A stretch of 64,000 nucleotides of DNA. Origin: a bacterium. GTDB lineage: Bacteria > Babelota > Babeliae > Babelales > RVW-14. The notes beneath the pieces were generated by a model. That model saw only the letters and a list, made by a program, of their open reading frames with translations. It was not told the DNA's origin and searched no databases. The stretch lies in assembly GCA_016699045.1 (NCBI GenBank), contig CP064957.1, positions 341,599-405,598 of the forward strand. The letters run 5' to 3'. The first letter of the stretch is position 1. Each line of letters begins with the position of its first letter. Below, one piece after another: positions 23,714-31,033 of the stretch. Made by a program: the position numbers and the translations under genes.

Positions 23714-24940
23714 TTACAAAAATACATCACCATTAATCAAGTCAATCATTTTTTTATACAAACGCAGCATAAAAATATCAAATTGCGCTTTAACAGCGGC
23801 AAAATCTTCATCGCTGACCATGGCAGGAATCGTACCTTTTGATTTGCATCGCTGCGTTAAACTACCAAACCCACGATCAAGCGACTTGGTAGGAATTTTC
23901 CAAAAAGCATCCAGATACGTAATATGCGTTTGGCCACGATCATAATGCAACGTGAATACTAAACGCATAGTTGGATCAAAATCAGCACCATCAATCGTCA
24001 TGGTATTTGATGGACAATATTCTTCAACCAAAAAATGATACTTGCCCGTCGTATGCCAATAATTAAAAAGCTCACGATCGTTACTATATATTTTTTGATT
24101 TTTTGGTTCTTGCAAACTGTTTTTATCAAGCATGCACTGCAAAACCGTATCCAAATCTTGTTGGTCGGCCATGATTATACCGCGGCCTTTAAAATCATTC
24201 AGCGGCTTAATAACATAGCGCTCACATTGCAATGCTTCATGAATTTTTTGTGCCAAATCTGTAGAATATTCTTTGGTACATAAAACAAATTTTGGCTTGT
24301 AAGGCGCAAACTCTTTATCTAAAAATAAAATATTAGTTAAATATTTACTATTCACAAAAGGCGCTACAGCAGCTCCTAAAACTAATAAATCTTCATTATT
24401 ATTTTTGAACGCTAAAATATGCGAACCAGAAGCATCTATATGCCGAAACATTAACAAACCAGCATGATCTGACAAAACAGCAGAATGTTTTCTTCTTCGC
24501 AAATTTCTAAAAGCAGGAACATTTGCAAGATCAGCAGTTCTTCCCATCGTCTTACCGCCCAATGCTAACAATTGAGCATTACGAATTTCCTGACGGTCTT
24601 CAGCACTAAATATGCCGGGACCAATATAATAAGGTGGTAGGTTAAATTGCTTAAAATAATTCCAAAAAAGCTGCCACATCGCTCCCTTGCCATGCATTGC
24701 ATCATGACCTTTGTAGCGAGAACGCATCCCCTCGCCAAATTCACAAATTTTTACCTTGCCATCTTTCAATCTTAAATCAGCAATCAGCCACGAGATATCA
24801 GACTTTATATCAACTCGATAAGCTGCAAACTTGCTCTGCAATTTAGCAAGCAAACCACTTTGTAGTGACGGCTCAATATCCGCAGAAACCGACCCCGCCA
24901 ACACAATAATACCGACTAAAAAACTCGTTGTTTTTCTCAT
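23714..24940 (-). CDS. secreted protein, paralog family member 5 (ATP-grasp / TTL-like motifs)
   Basis: Motifs present are DLRLKDGKVKICEFG, FWNYFKQFNLPPYYIG, YVIKPLNDFKGRGIIM, FLVEEY, FDPTMRLVF and FWKIPTKS. Confidence 0.6.
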   Translation of the reverse strand: MRKTTSFLVGIIVLAGSVSADIEPSLQSGLLAKLQSKFAAYRVDIKSDISWLIADLRLKDGKVKICEFGEGMRSRYKGHDAMHGKGAMWQLFWNYFKQFNLPPYYIGPGIFSAEDRQEIRNAQLLALGGKTMGRTADLANVPAFRNLRRRKHSAVLSDHAGLLMFRHIDASGSHILAFKNNNEDLLVLGAAVAPFVNSKYLTNILFLDKEFAPYKPKFVLCTKEYSTDLAQKIHEALQCERYVIKPLNDFKGRGIIMADQQDLDTVLQCMLDKNSLQEPKNQKIYSNDRELFNYWHTTGKYHFLVEEYCPSNTMTIDGADFDPTMRLVFTLHYDRGQTHITYLDAFWKIPTKSLDRGFGSLTQRCKSKGTIPAMVSDEDFAAVKAQFDIFMLRLYKKMIDLINGDVFL

Positions 24941-25109
24941 GACCTTGTTCTCCTTTTTTTTAGAAAACTAACTACACTTCTGCAGCCAGTTATAGCACAA
25001 AAAAATCATCATGTAAGAACGCAAAATATTTCTTGATCATCAGCGTAAAAGGCGTTACGCTCCTGAACTATGCACTACTATTTAAACCTTTTAGGAGAGA
25101 GGAAAACAT

Positions 25110-26675
25110 ATGAAGGCGCGCATCATAATATTAAGTCTTTTTTTATTGACAGCTTCACACAATGTCTTTGGCATCACCATTGATCTTGCGCAAAAAACTA
25201 CACAAAAACCCTACCAAGCAACATGCTTTTTACTCAAAGAAAATTTTACTAAAGATGCGGCTCTTTTAGCAGCAGAAGAAAGTTTGCAATTACAAGCGTT
25301 GCTTGGCAGCGACCTTGGAACATTGCTCAATTCGTTAGAATTTAAAGGTGCTGCTGGCACTATTCATTGCATCCCAGCACCCGTCAATAATGCTCTTCAT
25401 TATTTTATTTTTGCCGGCACCGGCGTTGACGAGCAAAATGAACAAAGCATGGAAAACATGCGACGCGCTACCGGAAAAATTGTTAACGAACTCAAAACAA
25501 AAAAGATTCCTAACGCCATTCTGCACATGCCAGAAGATGCCTCAGCAGAACTTACAAAACAAGTAACAATAGCAGCACTCTTAACTGATTATCAATACAG
25601 CGATTTCAAAAGCGATTACAAACATATTGACCATGTACTCACACTCGTACAAGAAAACGCTGGCGATGAAACAGCCACCGCCGTGTGGCAAGGCACCGTT
25701 ATTGGCGACATGACCAACACCATTCGTCGCTGGTCAGATGGCCCACCAAACATTGTAACGCCAAATTTTTTGGCAGAACAAGCAAAAAAACTTTCTGCTG
25801 AGCATGACTGCATTTGCACTGTCTTTGATCGCGCACAAGCGGAAGAACTCGGCCTCAATGGTTTTGTTGCTGTTGGCAAAGGATCAGCATCAGAAGAACG
25901 TTTTATTATTGTTGAATATCACACACCAGATCCTGATGCACCAACTATTGCATTGGTCGGCAAAGGCGTGGTATTTGATACCGGCGGCGTTAATTTAAAA
26001 ACTGAAGCCGGCATGATTGGCATGAAATACGACATGTGCGGTGCTGCTGCAGTGCTGGGCACCGTTTTTACGATTGCCCAACTCAAACCAAATATTAACG
26101 TTATCGCTATCGCACCAGCAGTAGAAAATAAAACGGGCTGCCAAGCATATCGCCCACAAGATATCATCACATTTTTTAACGGCAAGCACGGCGAAATTTT
26201 AAATACCGATGCCGAAGGCCGCGTAATCTTGGCTGACGCGTTAAGTTATGCAGAAAAAATTTACAAGCCAGATGCCATTATCGACGTTGCCACGTTGACC
26301 GGCGCCTGCGTCATGGCTCTCGGCCATTATTTTTCAGGCATGATGAGCCGCAACCAAGATTTGAAAGATCAACTGTTTAACGCCGCAAAAAACTCTGGCG
26401 AACGACTTTGGGAACTACCAATGTGCGATGATTTCAAAAAAAGTTTAGAATCACCCTACGCTGATTTTGCACATTTGGCAGGATCTGCTACCGGCGCTGG
26501 TGCTATTACCGCCGCCCACTTTTTAGAAAACTTTGTTGAAAATACGCCGTGGGCGCATCTTGACATTGCTGGAACCTCGAATAAAGTTGAAAATGTCAGC
26601 TACTTAAACAGCAAATTGGCAACCGGTGTTGGCGTTCGTTTGTTAACTGATCTTGTTTTAAATTATCAAAAATAA
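25110..26675 (+). CDS. pepA: leucyl aminopeptidase (M17) with an N-terminal signal peptide
   Basis: VGKGVVFDTGGVNLK, MKYDMCGAA and the NTDAEGR signature are present. Confidence 0.9.
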   Translation: MKARIIILSLFLLTASHNVFGITIDLAQKTTQKPYQATCFLLKENFTKDAALLAAEESLQLQALLGSDLGTLLNSLEFKGAAGTIHCIPAPVNNALHYFIFAGTGVDEQNEQSMENMRRATGKIVNELKTKKIPNAILHMPEDASAELTKQVTIAALLTDYQYSDFKSDYKHIDHVLTLVQENAGDETATAVWQGTVIGDMTNTIRRWSDGPPNIVTPNFLAEQAKKLSAEHDCICTVFDRAQAEELGLNGFVAVGKGSASEERFIIVEYHTPDPDAPTIALVGKGVVFDTGGVNLKTEAGMIGMKYDMCGAAAVLGTVFTIAQLKPNINVIAIAPAVENKTGCQAYRPQDIITFFNGKHGEILNTDAEGRVILADALSYAEKIYKPDAIIDVATLTGACVMALGHYFSGMMSRNQDLKDQLFNAAKNSGERLWELPMCDDFKKSLESPYADFAHLAGSATGAGAITAAHFLENFVENTPWAHLDIAGTSNKVENVSYLNSKLATGVGVRLLTDLVLNYQK

Positions 26676-26693
26676 CTCAAAAGGAGCCCATAT

Positions 26694-27206
26694 ATGAAAA
26701 ATAAGTTGTTCAAAAAATTACTTACGGTAGGCTTATGTTGTACAGTGTTTTCAAGTTGCAGTAACAAAAACATTGAACAGTCAACGACAACAACATCAAA
26801 ATTAACTGAGCAGGAAACAAAGGCTCAGGCAACAACAAAGGGAAGCCCCGTGGTAACATTAGATTCAGGATTAAAGTACGAAATCATAACAGCTGCACCC
26901 GACAACGCTGCAAAGCCAACCAAAGGCCAAGAAGTGGTTGTTCATTACACCGGCTGGTTAGACAATAACGGCCAAAAAGGCACTAAGTTTGATAGCAGCG
27001 TTGATCGCGGCCAAGAATTTAGATTTGTCGTTGGTATCGGCCAAGTTATTCAAGGCTGGGATCAAACACTTCTTGATATGAAGGTTGGCGAAAAACGCCT
27101 TGTTTCAATTCCTGCACATTTGGCTTATGGGACTCGTGGTGCTGGCAATGTAATCCCACCAAATGCAACCTTACTTTTTGAAGTAGAATTGCGCAAAATA
27201 GCTTAA
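26694..27206 (+). CDS. FKBP-type peptidyl-prolyl cis-trans isomerase, probable lipoprotein
   Basis: A lipobox-like VFSSC is present. The FKBP domain reads HYTGWL..G.KFDSS.DRG..F.F..G.G.VI.GWD....M..G. Confidence 0.85.
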   Translation: MKNKLFKKLLTVGLCCTVFSSCSNKNIEQSTTTTSKLTEQETKAQATTKGSPVVTLDSGLKYEIITAAPDNAAKPTKGQEVVVHYTGWLDNNGQKGTKFDSSVDRGQEFRFVVGIGQVIQGWDQTLLDMKVGEKRLVSIPAHLAYGTRGAGNVIPPNATLLFEVELRKIA

Positions 27207-27226
27207 AACGCTTATTCGTAGATTTT

Positions 27227-27262
27227 AAAAAGGGCCATACGGTTTTTCCGTATAGCCCTTTT
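27227..27262 (+). terminator. rho-independent terminator
   Basis: Hairpin aaaaagggccatacgg / ccgtatagccctttt with one mismatch, followed by a T tract. Confidence 0.7.
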
Positions 27263-27299
27263 AGCTTTATTTTAGCCAAAATGCGCCAAATTTAACGCC

Positions 27300-27327
27300 T
27301 TGCGTTAATCAACAAATATGTTATAAT
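27300..27327 (+). promoter_or_regulatory. sigma70-like promoter (TTGCGT - 16 nt - TATAAT)
   Basis: The -35 hexamer is at 27300..27305 and a perfect -10 hexamer at 27322..27327. The promoter faces the leader and the ABC importer operon. Confidence 0.6.
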
Positions 27328-27333
27328 TACAAT

Positions 27334-27498
27334 ATGAAAAATAAAAATTGGTGTTTTGACCACCTTGCTTTGTCAAAAAAAATTGCGGGGGACCTCCACG
27401 GGGTTTTCTCTCTTTGTTGCGCGTATATGTATGCCTCATATAGCTATCGTTTTTATACAAACGCTGGGGATTCTTTGCACGCACTCATAGTTACTTAA
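27334..27498 (+). CDS. candidate 54-codon leader ORF, Tyr-codon rich
   Basis: The ATG lies 7 nt after the -10 hexamer with no SD, so it would be leaderless-like. Codons 27424..27456 read Y-M-Y-A-S-Y-S-Y-R-F-Y. The ORF runs through the putative antiterminator arm. Confidence 0.3.
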   Translation: MKNKNWCFDHLALSKKIAGDLHGVFSLCCAYMYASYSYRFYTNAGDSLHALIVT

Positions 27499-27524
27499 TT
27501 TAGATTTAAAATTTTGAGACGTAC

Positions 27525-27556
27525 TCCCCAGCCTAAAAAGCTGGGGATTTTTTTTG
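27525..27556 (+). terminator. leader (attenuator) terminator upstream of the ABC importer operon
   Basis: Hairpin tccccagc / gctgggga followed by T8. A second copy of gctgggga at 27463..27470 could pair with 27525..27532 as an antiterminator. Confidence 0.65.
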
Positions 27557-27593
27557 TTCTTTTTTTATTACTACTTTTATCCAAGGACCAATT

Positions 27594-28565
27594 ATGAAAA
27601 TTCAAAAAATGTTACTGTTAACAACCGGCACTCTCATGCTGGTCGGCGCTCTTTTTGCATTCAAACATCTACGCAAACAACCAACACATCAATTTACCGT
27701 TGGCATTTTGCAAACAGCTTCCCACCCAGCTCTTGATGCGGTACGAGAAGGCTTTAAAAAACAAGCTCTGGCAAAACTGGGCGATGTTGGTTTTATTGAA
27801 CAAAATGCACAAGGCTCAACCAGCAACGCGCACATGATTGCACAAAGCTTCAATCAAAATCAATCGATCGATCTAGTACTCGCTATTGCCACACCAGCAG
27901 CACAAGCAATGGCTTCCCTCAATTCATCAAAGCCAATCGTTTTTGCCGCGGTTACTGACCCAACGGCAGCAGGACTTACGGGGCAAAATATCTGTGGCGC
28001 AACCGATAGTATCAACGTTGCTCAGCAATGCGCATTGATTCGTGAGCTCACACCAAACGCAAAAACCGTCGCGTTACTTTTCAACAAGGGCGAAGTTAAT
28101 GCAACCAGCATGGTAGCACAGATGGAACCAGAACTTAAAAAATTAGGTCTCACCACAATCCAATGCTGCGTTACCAACGAATCAGAAATACCAGCCGCTG
28201 TTGCCTCAGCATGTGGCAAGGCAGAGGTTATTCTTGCGCCAATTGATAACACAGTTGCCAGCACAATCGATTTTATAGCGCCAATGGCACGATCAAGACA
28301 AATCCCACTCTTTGTCAGCGATAATTTATTGGTACAACGCGGAGCACTTGCTGCACGGGGTGTTGACTACTTTACCAGTGGCATGACCGCTGCCGACCTT
28401 GCTCGCCACATTTTAATTGAACATCAAAAGCCATCAGCTTTGAAAACGATTACACCAGAATGCAACACGGTTTTTGTAAACAAAGATACGGCACACGCCT
28501 GTGAGCTCACGGTACCACAAAACTTTGGCGACGATGTACAAGTGCGCACGGTTTATGATGAATAA
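27594..28565 (+). CDS. ABC transporter substrate-binding protein (COG2984 / PF04392 type)
   Basis: Has a signal or TM anchor. VGILQTASHPALD..., LVLAIATPAAQA and PIVFAAVTDP..AGL follow the family pattern. Confidence 0.8.
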   Translation: MKIQKMLLLTTGTLMLVGALFAFKHLRKQPTHQFTVGILQTASHPALDAVREGFKKQALAKLGDVGFIEQNAQGSTSNAHMIAQSFNQNQSIDLVLAIATPAAQAMASLNSSKPIVFAAVTDPTAAGLTGQNICGATDSINVAQQCALIRELTPNAKTVALLFNKGEVNATSMVAQMEPELKKLGLTTIQCCVTNESEIPAAVASACGKAEVILAPIDNTVASTIDFIAPMARSRQIPLFVSDNLLVQRGALAARGVDYFTSGMTAADLARHILIEHQKPSALKTITPECNTVFVNKDTAHACELTVPQNFGDDVQVRTVYDE

Positions 28566-28600
28566 AAATATTGTTAACAGATTACTGAGATTGAAAACCA

Positions 28601-29440
28601 ATGAATGAATTTGCTTTATTAATAACAAGTATTGAATGCGGTCTTATTTTTTCGTTGCCGATACTCGGCATGTTTTTAAGTTCGCGCGTACTTAAAGTTG
28701 ATGACATGACGCTTGAAGGAAGCTTTGGACTTGGTGGGGCATTAACCGCTCTGCTGTTAAGTCAAGGGCTCAGTCCGTTACTTGCCATGCCATTAGCAAT
28801 GCTTGCTGCCGGTGCGGCCGGATTTATCACCGCACTGATGCACACAACCTTGCAACTGAATGTTTTGATGAGCGGCATTATTGTGACCACCGGCCTTTTT
28901 TCCATTAACCTCATATTGGCGGGTGCCAATATTTCACTTGCATCACATCAAACTATTTTTAAGCTTTGCAGTTTTATGACTGACTACAAATTATTATTTT
29001 TAGCGCTCTTCGCGTTTGCTTGCGTGATACTTGTCAGATGGCTGCTCACAACGCAAGTTGGTTTTTTGTTACAAGCAACCGGACACAACCCACGCGTTGT
29101 GCAAGCATTTGCCAAAAGCCCAACGTCTTTTTTAACACTTGGTCTCGTACTCGCTAACATGTTGGCAGGTCTTGCCGGCTCACTGTTGGTGCAATACGTT
29201 GGGTTCTTTTCAATCTGGTCAAGCGTCGGTACAATTATTATAACGTTGGCGGGACTCATGCTGGCAGAAATGCTCAGCACGCGTGTTAACGCCGCGCTCA
29301 TTGCTGGCGCCATCATGTACCAACTTGTTATTGCGCTCACTTTTGAGCTGCAGCTGAATCCCAACTGGAACAAGCTTATTACCGCACTGTTCATTATCGC
29401 ACTGTTGGCTGGGAAAAAAATAGTGACGGAAAAGGACTAA
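28601..29440 (+). CDS. ABC transporter permease
   Basis: A polytopic membrane protein encoded directly between the binding-protein gene and the ATPase gene. Confidence 0.8.
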   Translation: MNEFALLITSIECGLIFSLPILGMFLSSRVLKVDDMTLEGSFGLGGALTALLLSQGLSPLLAMPLAMLAAGAAGFITALMHTTLQLNVLMSGIIVTTGLFSINLILAGANISLASHQTIFKLCSFMTDYKLLFLALFAFACVILVRWLLTTQVGFLLQATGHNPRVVQAFAKSPTSFLTLGLVLANMLAGLAGSLLVQYVGFFSIWSSVGTIIITLAGLMLAEMLSTRVNAALIAGAIMYQLVIALTFELQLNPNWNKLITALFIIALLAGKKIVTEKD

Positions 29441-29441
29441 C

Positions 29442-30191
29442 ATGATTTCATTAAAAAATATCAGTAAAAAACACGGCCACAAAACAACTCTTGTCAACGT
29501 TAACACCACGATAGAACAAGGCGATTTTATTGTAATTGTGGGGCCCAATGGCGCCGGCAAAACAACGTTGTTCGATTTGATTGCCGGCACACAAGTATCA
29601 ACGGCCGGTAGAATCACGCTTGATAATAAAGACATTACTACCACCAACGAACATGTTCGCGCACACTGGATGGGCCGCCTGTTGCAAAATCCCGAACATA
29701 ACACGGTTGACACCATGACCGTCGCCCAAAACCTTGCGCTGGCATTATTTGCAAAAAAATCAGCATCACTTGCTGATGCACTTAAAATTGTTACGCCAGC
29801 AGTCATTGACGATATTCAAAAAAATTATGGCATCGATCTTAAGCCATTATTACAAACGCCCATGAAATCACTTTCTGGTGGACAGCGCCAATTGATTGCT
29901 TTTATAATGGCAACAATTACCAACCCTCGCCTCCTGCTTTTGGACGAACCAACTGCAGCGCTTGATCCGCAAGCAGCCACCACGCTCTTATCATGCGCGT
30001 ATCGTTTTATGCAACAGCACCACATGACCGCGCTGTTGATTACACACGATCCTCAGATTGCGTTAACGCTCGGTAATAAATTATGGTTGGTAAAAGATGG
30101 TACCGTTACGGTATTTGATGAACAAACCAAGAAAGCACTGAAGCCGCAAGATTTGATTGGCAGCATTGATTATGCAAACATCGTTACGTAA
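29442..30191 (+). CDS. ABC transporter ATP-binding protein
   Basis: Walker A GPNGAGKTT, signature LSGGQRQ and Walker B LLLLDEPTAALD are present. Confidence 0.9.
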   Translation: MISLKNISKKHGHKTTLVNVNTTIEQGDFIVIVGPNGAGKTTLFDLIAGTQVSTAGRITLDNKDITTTNEHVRAHWMGRLLQNPEHNTVDTMTVAQNLALALFAKKSASLADALKIVTPAVIDDIQKNYGIDLKPLLQTPMKSLSGGQRQLIAFIMATITNPRLLLLDEPTAALDPQAATTLLSCAYRFMQQHHMTALLITHDPQIALTLGNKLWLVKDGTVTVFDEQTKKALKPQDLIGSIDYANIVT

Positions 30192-30212
30192 AAAAAGACT
30201 TATAGTTAAAAC

Positions 30213-30245
30213 AAAAAAAGCCTCTATTTTGTAGAGGCTTTTTTT
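30213..30245. terminator. bidirectional rho-independent terminator
   Basis: The pattern is A7 - gcctcta - loop - tagaggc - T7, lying between convergent genes. Confidence 0.75.
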
Positions 30246-30259
30246 ATGATAGTTCAGTT

Positions 30260-31033
30260 TTATTTTTTCATTAACAAGTCATACGCTTCACTAATTTCTT
30301 TAAAGCGCGCTTCTGCTTCTTTATTTCCTGGATTTTTGTCAGGATGGAATTGACGCGCCAATCGACGATAAGTTTTCTTAATTTCATCGTCAGAAGCATC
30401 CTCTGGCAAGCCTAATACTTCAAGGTTTTTGCGCCGCTCTCCGGCTGGATCAGGAAAATTCCACTGATTATAACTATTCCCATAGCTATGCTGGTTATAG
30501 CTATTGTTATTTTTATCTTCCTCGATAATTTTGCCAAGCTCGACAAAGTCCTGGCCACAACCATAGATATGTGCCAACGCTGCAAGAATAAACAAGATTG
30601 GTTTTTGTGATGCTTTATCTGCTGCAAAAAATTCAGTACCACAACGCGTGAGCGATCGTAAACCTCTCGCTACTTCTCTTATCGCCATTGCTTGACCAGT
30701 CTTTATTTCGTGGTTATCACCTTCACTTGCTGGCACCATTCCCAAGAGGGTTTCTATTAGAATCAAAGCATAAACAAGCTTAGAAACCTGAGGCTGCGCT
30801 TGTGGATCAATCACCTGTGCCGGATCATCAAGCGATGCCGCATCCGCTTCTAGCTCATGCTTATTCATCACTGAATAAAGAGCGTCAGCCATTTCATACA
30901 AATCGTAAGCGGCCCAAGGATAGGTATAAAGACACCGATCAGTTTTGCCGTTGTTGTACAAATCGAGCAATCCATTCAATAAAGAAAGCCCACTAGGTTC
31001 TGTTGACTTTTCAAAAATGTGATTTGAGTGCAT
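30260..31033 (-). CDS. J-domain (DnaJ-like) protein, with the J-domain at the C-terminus
   Basis: The sequence [51 protein letters not shown] is a canonical J-domain. The N-terminal 190 aa are unrecognised. Confidence 0.8.

Follow-up and report, generated by a model that had tools for sequence, protein, structure and literature searches.

A 64,000-nucleotide (nt) stretch of contig CP064957.1 (assembly GCA_016699045.1, positions 341,599 to 405,598), which we call the window, carries an operon for an ATP-binding cassette (ABC) importer, preceded by a leader that contains a short, Tyr-rich open reading frame (ORF). We consider it likely that this leader is a ribosome-mediated transcription attenuator that works through a leader peptide, senses tyrosine and controls a transporter of aromatic amino acids; some of its relatives appear, judging from their codons, to sense phenylalanine as well. 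A first-pass annotation of the same DNA had proposed attenuation by ribosome stalling on Tyr codons. Comparative data now support this proposal: the ORF, the Tyr/Phe codon run and the paired RNA arms recur in 64 loci, though the 26-nt spacing between antiterminator arm and stop codon in the window fits less well. The closest homologues of the importer's binding protein are found in assemblies of Candidatus Babeliales (Dependentiae/TM6). The Dependentiae are host-dependent bacteria known mostly from metagenomes, with few isolates grown in protist hosts.

A Tyr-rich reading frame precedes a terminator and contains one arm of a competing hairpin

The elements that the first-pass annotation had picked out are all present (Table 1): a TTGCGT-16-TATAAT promoter, a 54-codon ORF whose ATG lies just past the -10 box, a run of five TAT codons and one TTT, a terminator before the binding-protein gene, and a second copy of GCTGGGGA whose pairing with the 5' arm of the terminator excludes the terminator hairpin. 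Six nucleotides separate the -10 box from the leader ATG, the A being the seventh base after the box, and there is no Shine-Dalgarno sequence before this ATG, unlike that of the binding-protein gene. Because of these two features we predict a leaderless mRNA: transcription would start at the A of the ATG or at an adjacent base, and the leader peptide is probably translated from this leaderless 5' end. In about 30 of the 64 family loci, the leader ATG follows the end of a -10-like hexamer by 5-9 nt, compared with about 9 expected under uniform placement over the scanned range; among family loci the -35 element is often TTGCTA.

When the leader was shuffled 5000 times with its dinucleotides preserved, an 11-codon window with at least five Tyr codons arose 9 times, and a 54-codon ORF ending at that place has p = 0.037 for the window locus alone. 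The ORF matches no Pfam or NCBIfam family. When six leader peptides were looked up in a protein collection, one was present, without a name; given that the other five were lacking, gene callers mostly overlook such leader peptides.

The 5' arm of the antiterminator (segment 2) lies within the ORF and is the exact complement of the 5' arm of the terminator (segment 3). Folds of RNA without the 3' terminator arm (segment 4) contain 8 of 8 pairs between segments 2 and 3. In the window this duplex stands out from shuffled sequences (z = -5.8); folded as a whole, the leader has no unusual stability (z = -1.3). The sequence GCTGGGGA or its complement occurs four times in 64 kb, compared with 0.76 expected, and three of the four occurrences lie within 27463-27547; the CCCCRG...CYGGGG hairpin occurs only once in the window. 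Folding also predicts inner helices within the antiterminator that enclose the leader stop codon, and in the wider family an inner helix GCCUAA...UUAGGC likewise encloses the stop. The terminator stem ends only 46 nt before the binding-protein gene, and no promoter was detected in these 46 nt.

Table 1 Features of the leader, the importer operon and the upstream border (positions in the window).
Feature	Coordinates	Strand	Details
Sigma-70-type promoter	27300-27327	+	-35 TTGCGT 27300-27305; 16-nt spacer; -10 TATAAT 27322-27327; TG at 27319-27320 gives extended -10 TGtTATAAT
Leader-peptide ORF	27334-27498	+	54 codons plus TAA (27496-27498); predicted peptide MKNKNWCFDHLALSKKIAGDLHGVFSLCCAYMYASYSYRFYTNAGDSLHALIVT, then stop
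Regulatory codon run	27424-27456	+	Y-M-Y-A-S-Y-S-Y-R-F-Y; Tyr TAT at 27424, 27430, 27439, 27445, 27454; Phe TTT at 27451
Segment 2, antiterminator 5' arm	27463-27470	+	GCUGGGGA; inside leader ORF; exact complement of 27525-27532
Antiterminator inner helices	27479-27522	+	ACG/CGU and CUCA/UGAG (folds)
Intrinsic terminator (attenuator)	27525-27555	+	Segment 3 TCCCCAGC (RNA UCCCCAGC) 27525-27532; 7-nt loop CUAAAAA; segment 4 GCTGGGGA (RNA GCUGGGGA) 27540-27547; U8 (T8 27548-27555); 8 pairs, -14.4 kcal/mol
Candidate segment 1	27385-27397	+	GCGGGGGACCUCC; predicted to pair with 27466-27478 in ribosome-free RNA (anti-antiterminator)
Small 5' hairpin	27350-27364	+	GGUG-UUUUGAC-CACC; inside ORF; predicted fold, invariant in four close relatives
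Shine-Dalgarno sequence of binding-protein gene	27583-27587	+	AAGGA; 6 nt 5' of ATG
Substrate-binding protein gene	27594-28565	+	PF04392; Pfam E = 8.9e-54
Permease gene	28601-29440	+	Pfam match
ABC ATPase gene	29442-30191	+	Pfam match
Bidirectional terminator 3' of operon	30217-30241		
Upstream gene, FKBP-type isomerase	26694-27206		Pfam FKBP_C match
Intrinsic terminator of FKBP-type isomerase gene	27228-27267	+	GGGCCATACGG-TTTTT-CCGTATAGCCC, then T's

The leader architecture is conserved in Dependentiae and environmental Chlamydiae

In four close loci (L001, L002/L004, L005), the leader is far better conserved than the binding protein, which is 70-90% identical, and an almost invariant block of 37 nt spans the Tyr run and GCTGGGGA. 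Two indels distinguish L002 and L005 from the window, a -1 after the fourth codon and a +1 before GGGGG. The stretch 27349-27385 (3760-3797 of L002), about 12 codons whose nucleotides are wholly or nearly invariant, is consequently read in differing frames in the two clades; the ORF is nonetheless uninterrupted, as in all relatives, and the two clades share a frame again by the time the Tyr run begins. Because these compensating indels keep the ORF open in differing frames, the alignments indicate that the conserved thing is an open frame that would bring ribosomes to the Tyr codons, not the sequence of the peptide.

Searches with nhmmer using the four close leaders matched distant loci only in the 3' half and the terminator; we therefore translated the region instead of modelling it as RNA. 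Scans of species-representative genomes and metagenomes with an alignment of the binding protein yielded 141 further loci, and most Dependentiae and Chlamydiae loci with enough upstream sequence have a leader ORF and a terminator before the PF04392 gene. Requiring at least 4 Tyr or Phe in 12 residues, 64 distinct leaders qualify, from Dependentiae/Babeliales and environmental Chlamydiae. They share one order of elements: ATG, ORF, Tyr/Phe run, G-run, stop codon, and a CCCCRG terminator. The ORFs have 19-80 codons and a Tyr/Phe-rich C-terminal part, and the G-run lies within the ORF or just past it. The terminator stem, CCCC(A/G)G / C(U/C)GGGG, is found across the two phyla, and its 5' arm has the G-run as an alternative pairing partner. 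Nearly all relatives have an AAGGA-type site ahead of the binding-protein gene.

Directly before the stop codon, family leaders end, for example, in SYSYSYYFYFIYEGSHYA, TYIYAYYFYAQVRGLQYA, TPTYYYYYYTYTLGNYPIA or SYYSYYYYYYSRLYRGSISTS, and chlamydial leaders in FYYFYYKKELVG or FFACQFFFFFNREERGLIR. Across the 64 leaders, Tyr makes up 10.7% of residues, Phe 9.0% and Trp 0.5%. ORF length exceeds that in dinucleotide shuffles (Fisher p = 5e-18, 35 loci), and the frame with the longest ORF is also the one richest in Tyr/Phe codons in 22 of 35 loci, compared with about 12 expected (p = 3e-4). Comparison of orthologous leaders, which the first-pass annotation had named as a check on its reading, thus finds the ORF and the Tyr/Phe run kept in 64 distinct leaders and the arms both kept and covarying.

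Several genomes contain two PF04392 genes in tandem, each with its own leader and terminator (L044 1100-2500, L137 400-1760, L053 1150-2500, L026 2240-3760, and L103). In chlamydial tandem pairs, one leader contains Phe codons only (ending in RFFSFFTHKERAS or RFFAFFTKNEERIG before the stop) and the other both Tyr and Phe (ending in FYYFYYKKELVG). The codon content of these pairs suggests paralogue-specific sensing.

The antiterminator and terminator arms covary

Across the family, segment 2 and the 5' arm of the terminator form a more stable duplex than in shuffles (Fisher p = 3e-22). Segment 2 also pairs better with the terminator arm of its own locus than with the arms of other loci (-11.63 vs -9.91 +/- 0.25 kcal/mol), and 0 of 5000 permutations reach the observed value; this own-arm advantage is a covariation signal. 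The changes are visible in individual loci. In the window, GCUGGGGA faces UCCCCAGC; in L053, GCCGGGG faces CCCCGGC; and in L082, UGCGGGG faces CCCCCGCA. Segment 2 contains GAGG and the terminator 5' arm CCUC in L095/L018, L060 and L127, and L013 has AGGG with CCCU.

We aligned 24 leaders (A3) to test the helices. Pairing in the terminator helix is 88%, with 10 double changes, a level reached by 0 of 500 shuffles. The antiterminator helix is 71.7% paired, with double changes from G-C to A-U in L095, L060 and L013. The first register tried for this helix was one column off and did no better than shuffles; the correct register was picked from a slid control and then tested, a choice that was partly post hoc. 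Apart from the terminator and antiterminator, RNAalifold detected in the 24 leaders a single helix of 3 pairs, which showed almost no covariation.

Codon spacing and folding in relation to a possible kinetic switch driven by the ribosome

All 64 loci have at least 3 Tyr/Phe codons located at least 12 nt 5' of segment 2, with a family median of 7.5 Tyr/Phe codons within 75 nt 5' of it. The stop codon lies no more than 15 nt 3' of segment 2 in 48 of the 64 (median 12 nt), such that a terminating ribosome would, on this geometry, cover segment 2 in those loci. For Tyr codons 1-4 of the window, the distance to segment 2 downstream is 18-39 nt.

To model the switch, we folded only the RNA available between ribosome and polymerase. 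Stalling of the ribosome at any one of Tyr codons 1-4 gives an antiterminator of -19.7 kcal/mol with 8 of 8 pairs between segments 2 and 3; a stall at the fifth Tyr codon covers part of segment 2; and with the ribosome at the stop codon, the terminator alone forms. An equilibrium fold of the full leader, with the ribosome footprint forced to be unpaired, never switched. This has two causes: the terminator state is slightly more stable, and the program pairs across the ribosome and joins the A-run to the U-tract.

The mechanism we propose is as follows. Transcription would start at or next to the A of ATG 27334, and a ribosome would load on the leaderless 5' end and translate the 54 codons. When charged Tyr-tRNA(Tyr) is scarce, it would stall on the TAT codons at 27424-27445, leaving segment 2 free just ahead; once made, segment 3 would pair with it, and the resulting antiterminator hairpin (about -19.7 kcal/mol) would withhold segment 3 from segment 4, and the polymerase would continue past the U8 tract to the operon genes. 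With ample tyrosine, the ribosome would cross segment 2 and the inner helices to reach the stop codon at 27496; the 8-bp terminator would then form and transcription would end at 27548-27555. With no ribosome on the RNA, the upstream C-rich stretch at 27385-27397 could hold segment 2, also favouring termination. In ribosome-free RNA that ends before segment 3, 27334-27480, the minimum-free-energy fold has 12 pairs between 27385-27397 and the segment 2 region; the role of this candidate segment 1 is a prediction from folding, and independent relatives are too few for covariation. We infer the stalling itself, and the direction and size of the response to tyrosine, from this arrangement. If the model holds, changing segment 2 from GCUGGGGA to GCUCCCCA at 27463-27470 would leave expression constitutively off.

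The chlamydial loci appear to be wired differently. In L044 (2340-2460), L054 and L137, five segments built from CCCCGGC/GCCGGGG-type repeats can pair in a chain (A:B, B:C, C:D, D:E), whereas the Dependentiae have a three-segment arrangement. The end of the chlamydial ORF, GGAGCUGG, pairs with CCCCGGCUCC; CCCCGGCUCC can alternatively pair with GAGCCGGGG, and GAGCCGGGG in turn with CCCCGGC, the 5' arm of the terminator. An upstream stall would free the first segment, and the change would propagate to the antiterminator; a ribosome at the stop codon would shift the register, and the terminator would form. If the sensor were anything but a translating ribosome, it would be difficult to account for two wirings with the same predicted sign of regulation.

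Several points weigh against this interpretation. The stop codon in the window lies 26 nt past segment 2, an outlier relative to the family median of 12 nt; a ribosome at this stop would not itself cover segment 2, and termination would then depend on timing and on whether the inner helices are melted. The terminator state (-22.6 kcal/mol) is slightly more stable at equilibrium than the antiterminator (-19.7 kcal/mol); the switch must therefore be kinetic, as in classical attenuators. Covariation of the antiterminator is modest in the alignment test, with 16, 7 and 27 of 500 shuffles doing as well, and the loci are related, such that the combined p-values overstate their independence. The ORF has no Shine-Dalgarno sequence, so its translation hinges on the predicted leaderless start; where transcription begins, that the ORF is translated and that tyrosine has an effect are all predictions. 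Lastly, the conserved hairpins in the 5' part of the leader are not accounted for by a simple attenuation model.

Alternative explanations

The strong conservation of leader nucleotides in close relatives, third codon positions included, and the conserved hairpins in the 5' half could also reflect a ligand-sensing riboswitch or a T-box-like element that chooses between the hairpins by binding a metabolite or uncharged tRNA, the ORF being incidental. There are precedents for this: in Streptococcus suis a T-box governs a member of this transporter family (PMC9382623), and in Alkalibacterium members of it are preceded by a candidate riboswitch, the trpB motif (PMC11109978). Yet neither form of this alternative, which the first-pass annotation had raised itself, finds support in Rfam: no known riboswitch, T-box or leader family is matched at threshold, and the T-box (RF00230), absent from the window at its gathering score, is not found in 27150-27700 even at E <= 10. 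The whole-leader fold is of ordinary stability, and RNAalifold finds next to nothing outside the two competing hairpins. An ATG frame of about 45 codons stays open in AT-rich DNA across 64 divergent leaders, along with Tyr/Phe runs in that frame and frameshifts that offset each other, none of which a riboswitch needs. We give this explanation almost no credence.

We also think it improbable that the ORF encodes a functional Tyr/Phe-rich small protein, such as a membrane micro-protein or a partner of the transporter, that has its own terminator, with the operon expressed by unregulated leak-through. At 40-60 residues, the ORF exceeds classical leader peptides, its Tyr/Phe-rich tail is hydrophobic, and subfamilies share some N-terminal similarity (MKIK..., ...GLNxAKSQxCALSY). 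Against this, the amino-acid sequence is not conserved, and close relatives read identical bases in two frames; the peptides match no protein family and vary from 19 to 80 codons, and nothing stays constant except the Tyr/Phe run and how far it lies from the RNA arms. The antiterminator arm within the ORF covaries with the terminator arm, pointing to a regulatory switch, and past the terminator the 46 nt offer neither room nor signal for a separate operon promoter.

Some elements are not needed by a ribosome-based switch: GUAUGCC, which occurs in many leaders, the GGC-N9-GCC hairpin, and positions 27385-27405 in the window's clade. These might instead be sites for an RNA-binding regulator of the TRAP, PyrR, BglG or ANTAR kind, acting on GUAUGCC or on the 5' hairpins to cause antitermination or termination. 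However, GUAUGCC followed by UAA reads Tyr-Ala-stop, and the third base of the Ala codon varies by clade (GCC, GCG, GCA), such that the motif looks like a coding signature combined with inner-helix pairing. No domain of an RNA-binding regulator was detected in the genes scanned next to the operon (23714-31033), no Rfam protein-binding leader motif was matched, and a regulator of this kind would leave the in-frame Tyr/Phe runs unexplained. Protein-mediated control is in our judgement very improbable and is not required, although a regulator might conceivably act on the 5' hairpins, and attenuation by a translating ribosome remains the reading that we adopt below.

The importer is of an aromatic amino-acid type

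The first-pass annotation had linked the operon to aromatic amino acids, and structures of related proteins bear this out. The homologues of the binding protein in the PDB (3LKV, 6HNI chain K and 3LFT; E = 1e-34 to 4e-42) are VC_1101, CD0873 and SP1069, which hold Phe, Tyr and Trp, respectively (PMC6816091). In CD0873, Glu263 binds the Tyr hydroxyl, where the Phe and Trp binders have Ala, and Tyr279 excludes Trp, where the Trp binder SP1069 has Gln (Gln284) (PMC6816091). In phmmer and family alignments, Asp243 of the window protein aligns with Glu263 and Tyr259 with Tyr279, residues of the Tyr type; the Asp243/Tyr259 pair is present in nearly all Dependentiae and Chlamydiae homologues. The protein is of aromatic amino-acid type and, by these pocket residues, of the Tyr/Phe-binding type.

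His, Ala, Phe or Tyr replaces Asp243 in a small share of the homologues (L043, which is the Dependentiae isolate Noda2021, L020, L034, L036, L053, L123, L103). Where these homologues without Asp243 have a detectable leader, it tends to contain more Phe than Tyr codons. As a general relation between residue 243 and the Tyr-to-Phe ratio of the leader, we rejected this weak trend; the Phe-only chlamydial leaders still go with Asp.

Homologues in Alkalibacterium have the trpB motif RF04312 upstream (L058 2023-2141, L061 2158-2276, L065 2158-2276; 59.6-62.4 bits) and Gln at position 259, like Gln284 of the Trp-binding SP1069. This co-occurrence supports a tryptophan-related role for an orphan motif.

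TM6/Dependentiae lack amino-acid biosynthesis (PMC4776705), and several environmental chlamydiae have lost their aromatic branches (PMC3937554); for these reasons, uptake that is induced under shortage makes sense.

The promoter region and additional features of the leader

The terminator of the upstream FKBP-type isomerase gene shows compensatory changes in its counterparts in L001, L002 and L005, and it is the border at which a new transcription unit begins. The promoter that follows was read directly from the sequence and from its conservation, since the promoter scan required a -35 element with at least 4 of 6 matches to TTGACA and TTGCGT-16-TATAAT was thus unlisted. In L001, L002 and L005, the -10 region and the following TACAATATG are invariant. 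The only match to RF04312, on the minus strand at 27221-27312, running from the FKBP terminator into the -35 region, scored 26.8 bits against a gathering score of 59 and was judged to be noise. Neither tRNA genes nor Rfam families scoring at or above the gathering threshold occur in the 64-kb window, whose GC skew is negative throughout.

In the window's clade, the 5' half of the leader (27350-27405) contains two hairpins, GGUG...CACC and GACCUC-CAC-GGGGUU, the first of which is possibly a pause hairpin. The wider family has a GGC-N9-GCC hairpin, different in sequence, at the same relative place (A3 columns ~80-120), with some compensatory changes (GGUA/UACC in L111). Such hairpins could serve to pause the polymerase and synchronise transcription with translation.

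A second Tyr-rich stretch lies past the U-tract at 27554-27600, where TAT TAC TAC TTT TAT (Y-Y-Y-F-Y) is in frame with a TTG at 27554; it overlaps the ribosome-binding site of the binding-protein gene, out of frame with that gene. L002 and L005 retain Y-Y-F-Y through an in-frame 3-nt indel. We rejected this stretch (27563-27595) as a feature of the family: it is confined to the window's clade, with no enrichment in the wider family (Fisher p = 0.96), and it is probably incidental to the U/A-rich sequence.

Implications

Searches of open-access literature found no earlier attenuator or cis-regulatory RNA mechanism for Dependentiae/TM6, and no Tyr leader peptide before this transporter. The present leader appears to be the first cis-regulatory RNA mechanism described for this phylum, one also found in environmental Chlamydiae. 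The mechanism itself is the textbook one of the trp operon; what is new is the combination of lineage, Tyr codons, an importer as target and a predicted leaderless start. The advance is one of scope and annotation, not of principle. For a poorly characterised ABC family, the leaders give independent regulatory evidence that this PF04392/COG2984 branch imports tyrosine, and phenylalanine with it, in keeping with the Tyr-type pocket residues. They also suggest that these amino-acid auxotrophs sense the tyrosine supply of the host through tRNA charging and raise uptake when it is low.

Comparison with known systems

The leader resembles E. coli trpL, pheL and hisL in its short ORF with a cluster of cognate codons, its terminator before the first structural gene, and its competing antiterminator, formed in part by the last portion of the ORF, which supplies the 5' arm, with stalling predicted to cause read-through; ribosome-free RNA probably has the 1:2-type pairing of classical attenuators. 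It differs from them in having Tyr (and Phe) codons, in controlling an importer rather than a biosynthetic operon, and in the length of the ORF (54 codons here, 19-80 in the family), which has no Shine-Dalgarno sequence and a predicted leaderless start. The hosts, Dependentiae and environmental Chlamydiae, differ as well, and there is no similarity in sequence or covariance model to the leaders in Rfam: none of its amino-acid leader families (Trp, Phe, His, Leu, Thr, leu/phe leaders) is matched in the window or the leader.

Mapping in Deinococcus deserti has revealed leader peptides with leaderless starts (PMC4007540), and mycobacteria have leaderless polycysteine short ORFs (bioRxiv 10.1101/834739). 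These share with our leader the use of residue-rich short ORFs as amino-acid sensors; their starts were mapped, whereas ours is predicted, and the amino acids, targets and phyla are different. The predicted leaderless start would enlarge this small set of leaderless attenuators.

Chlamydial TrpL leader peptides lie upstream of trpB, with 59 amino acids in C. trachomatis and the sequence MKINKADTFSTNALALLNNLCALYSSAFPFFFSLWWAFAQ in C. felis (PMC3937554). Like our leaders, they are peptides of 40-59 amino acids with C-terminal regulatory residues and an MK(I)N/K-type start; unlike ours, they have Trp codons and precede genes for tryptophan salvage. C. felis TrpL (MKINK...CALYSSAFPFFFSLWWAFAQ; ...SSAFPFFFSLWW) and the leader of L062 (2186-2308; ...CGSVFYFAYPFFFSF..., ...FYFAYPFFFSF) match over 30 residues by BLASTP (E = 0.001), including PFFFS. 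The two may have a common origin followed by a codon swap, a lead that comes from one short pairwise match. A bolder proposal, which we regard as unlikely, is that the Tyr/Phe leaders and chlamydial TrpL form one ancient, mobile attenuator family that moved between amoeba-associated phyla with transporter and salvage operons and was repeatedly re-tuned by swaps among Tyr, Phe and Trp codons, sometimes in parallel with the specificity residues of the binding protein; as a further possibility, the terminated leader RNA of about 215 nt, presumably abundant, or the peptide, might act in trans, as do rnTrpL and peTrpL in Sinorhizobium.

Closest in target are the T-box of S. suis trpXYZ and RF04312. 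TrpX belongs to this transporter family and is under a Trp T-box (PMC9382623), and RF04312, a candidate riboswitch, is often found before members of the family (PMC11109978). They have in common with our leader the PF04392/COG2984 family, the 'tryptophan/tyrosine transport system' of KEGG, and a terminator/antiterminator switch in RNA that responds to an aromatic amino acid or, for our leader, is predicted to; they differ in the sensor, which is uncharged tRNA for the T-box, an unknown ligand for RF04312 and, as proposed here, the translating ribosome. One transporter family thus seemingly uses three RNA sensors across phyla: a T-box, the trpB motif and a leader peptide.

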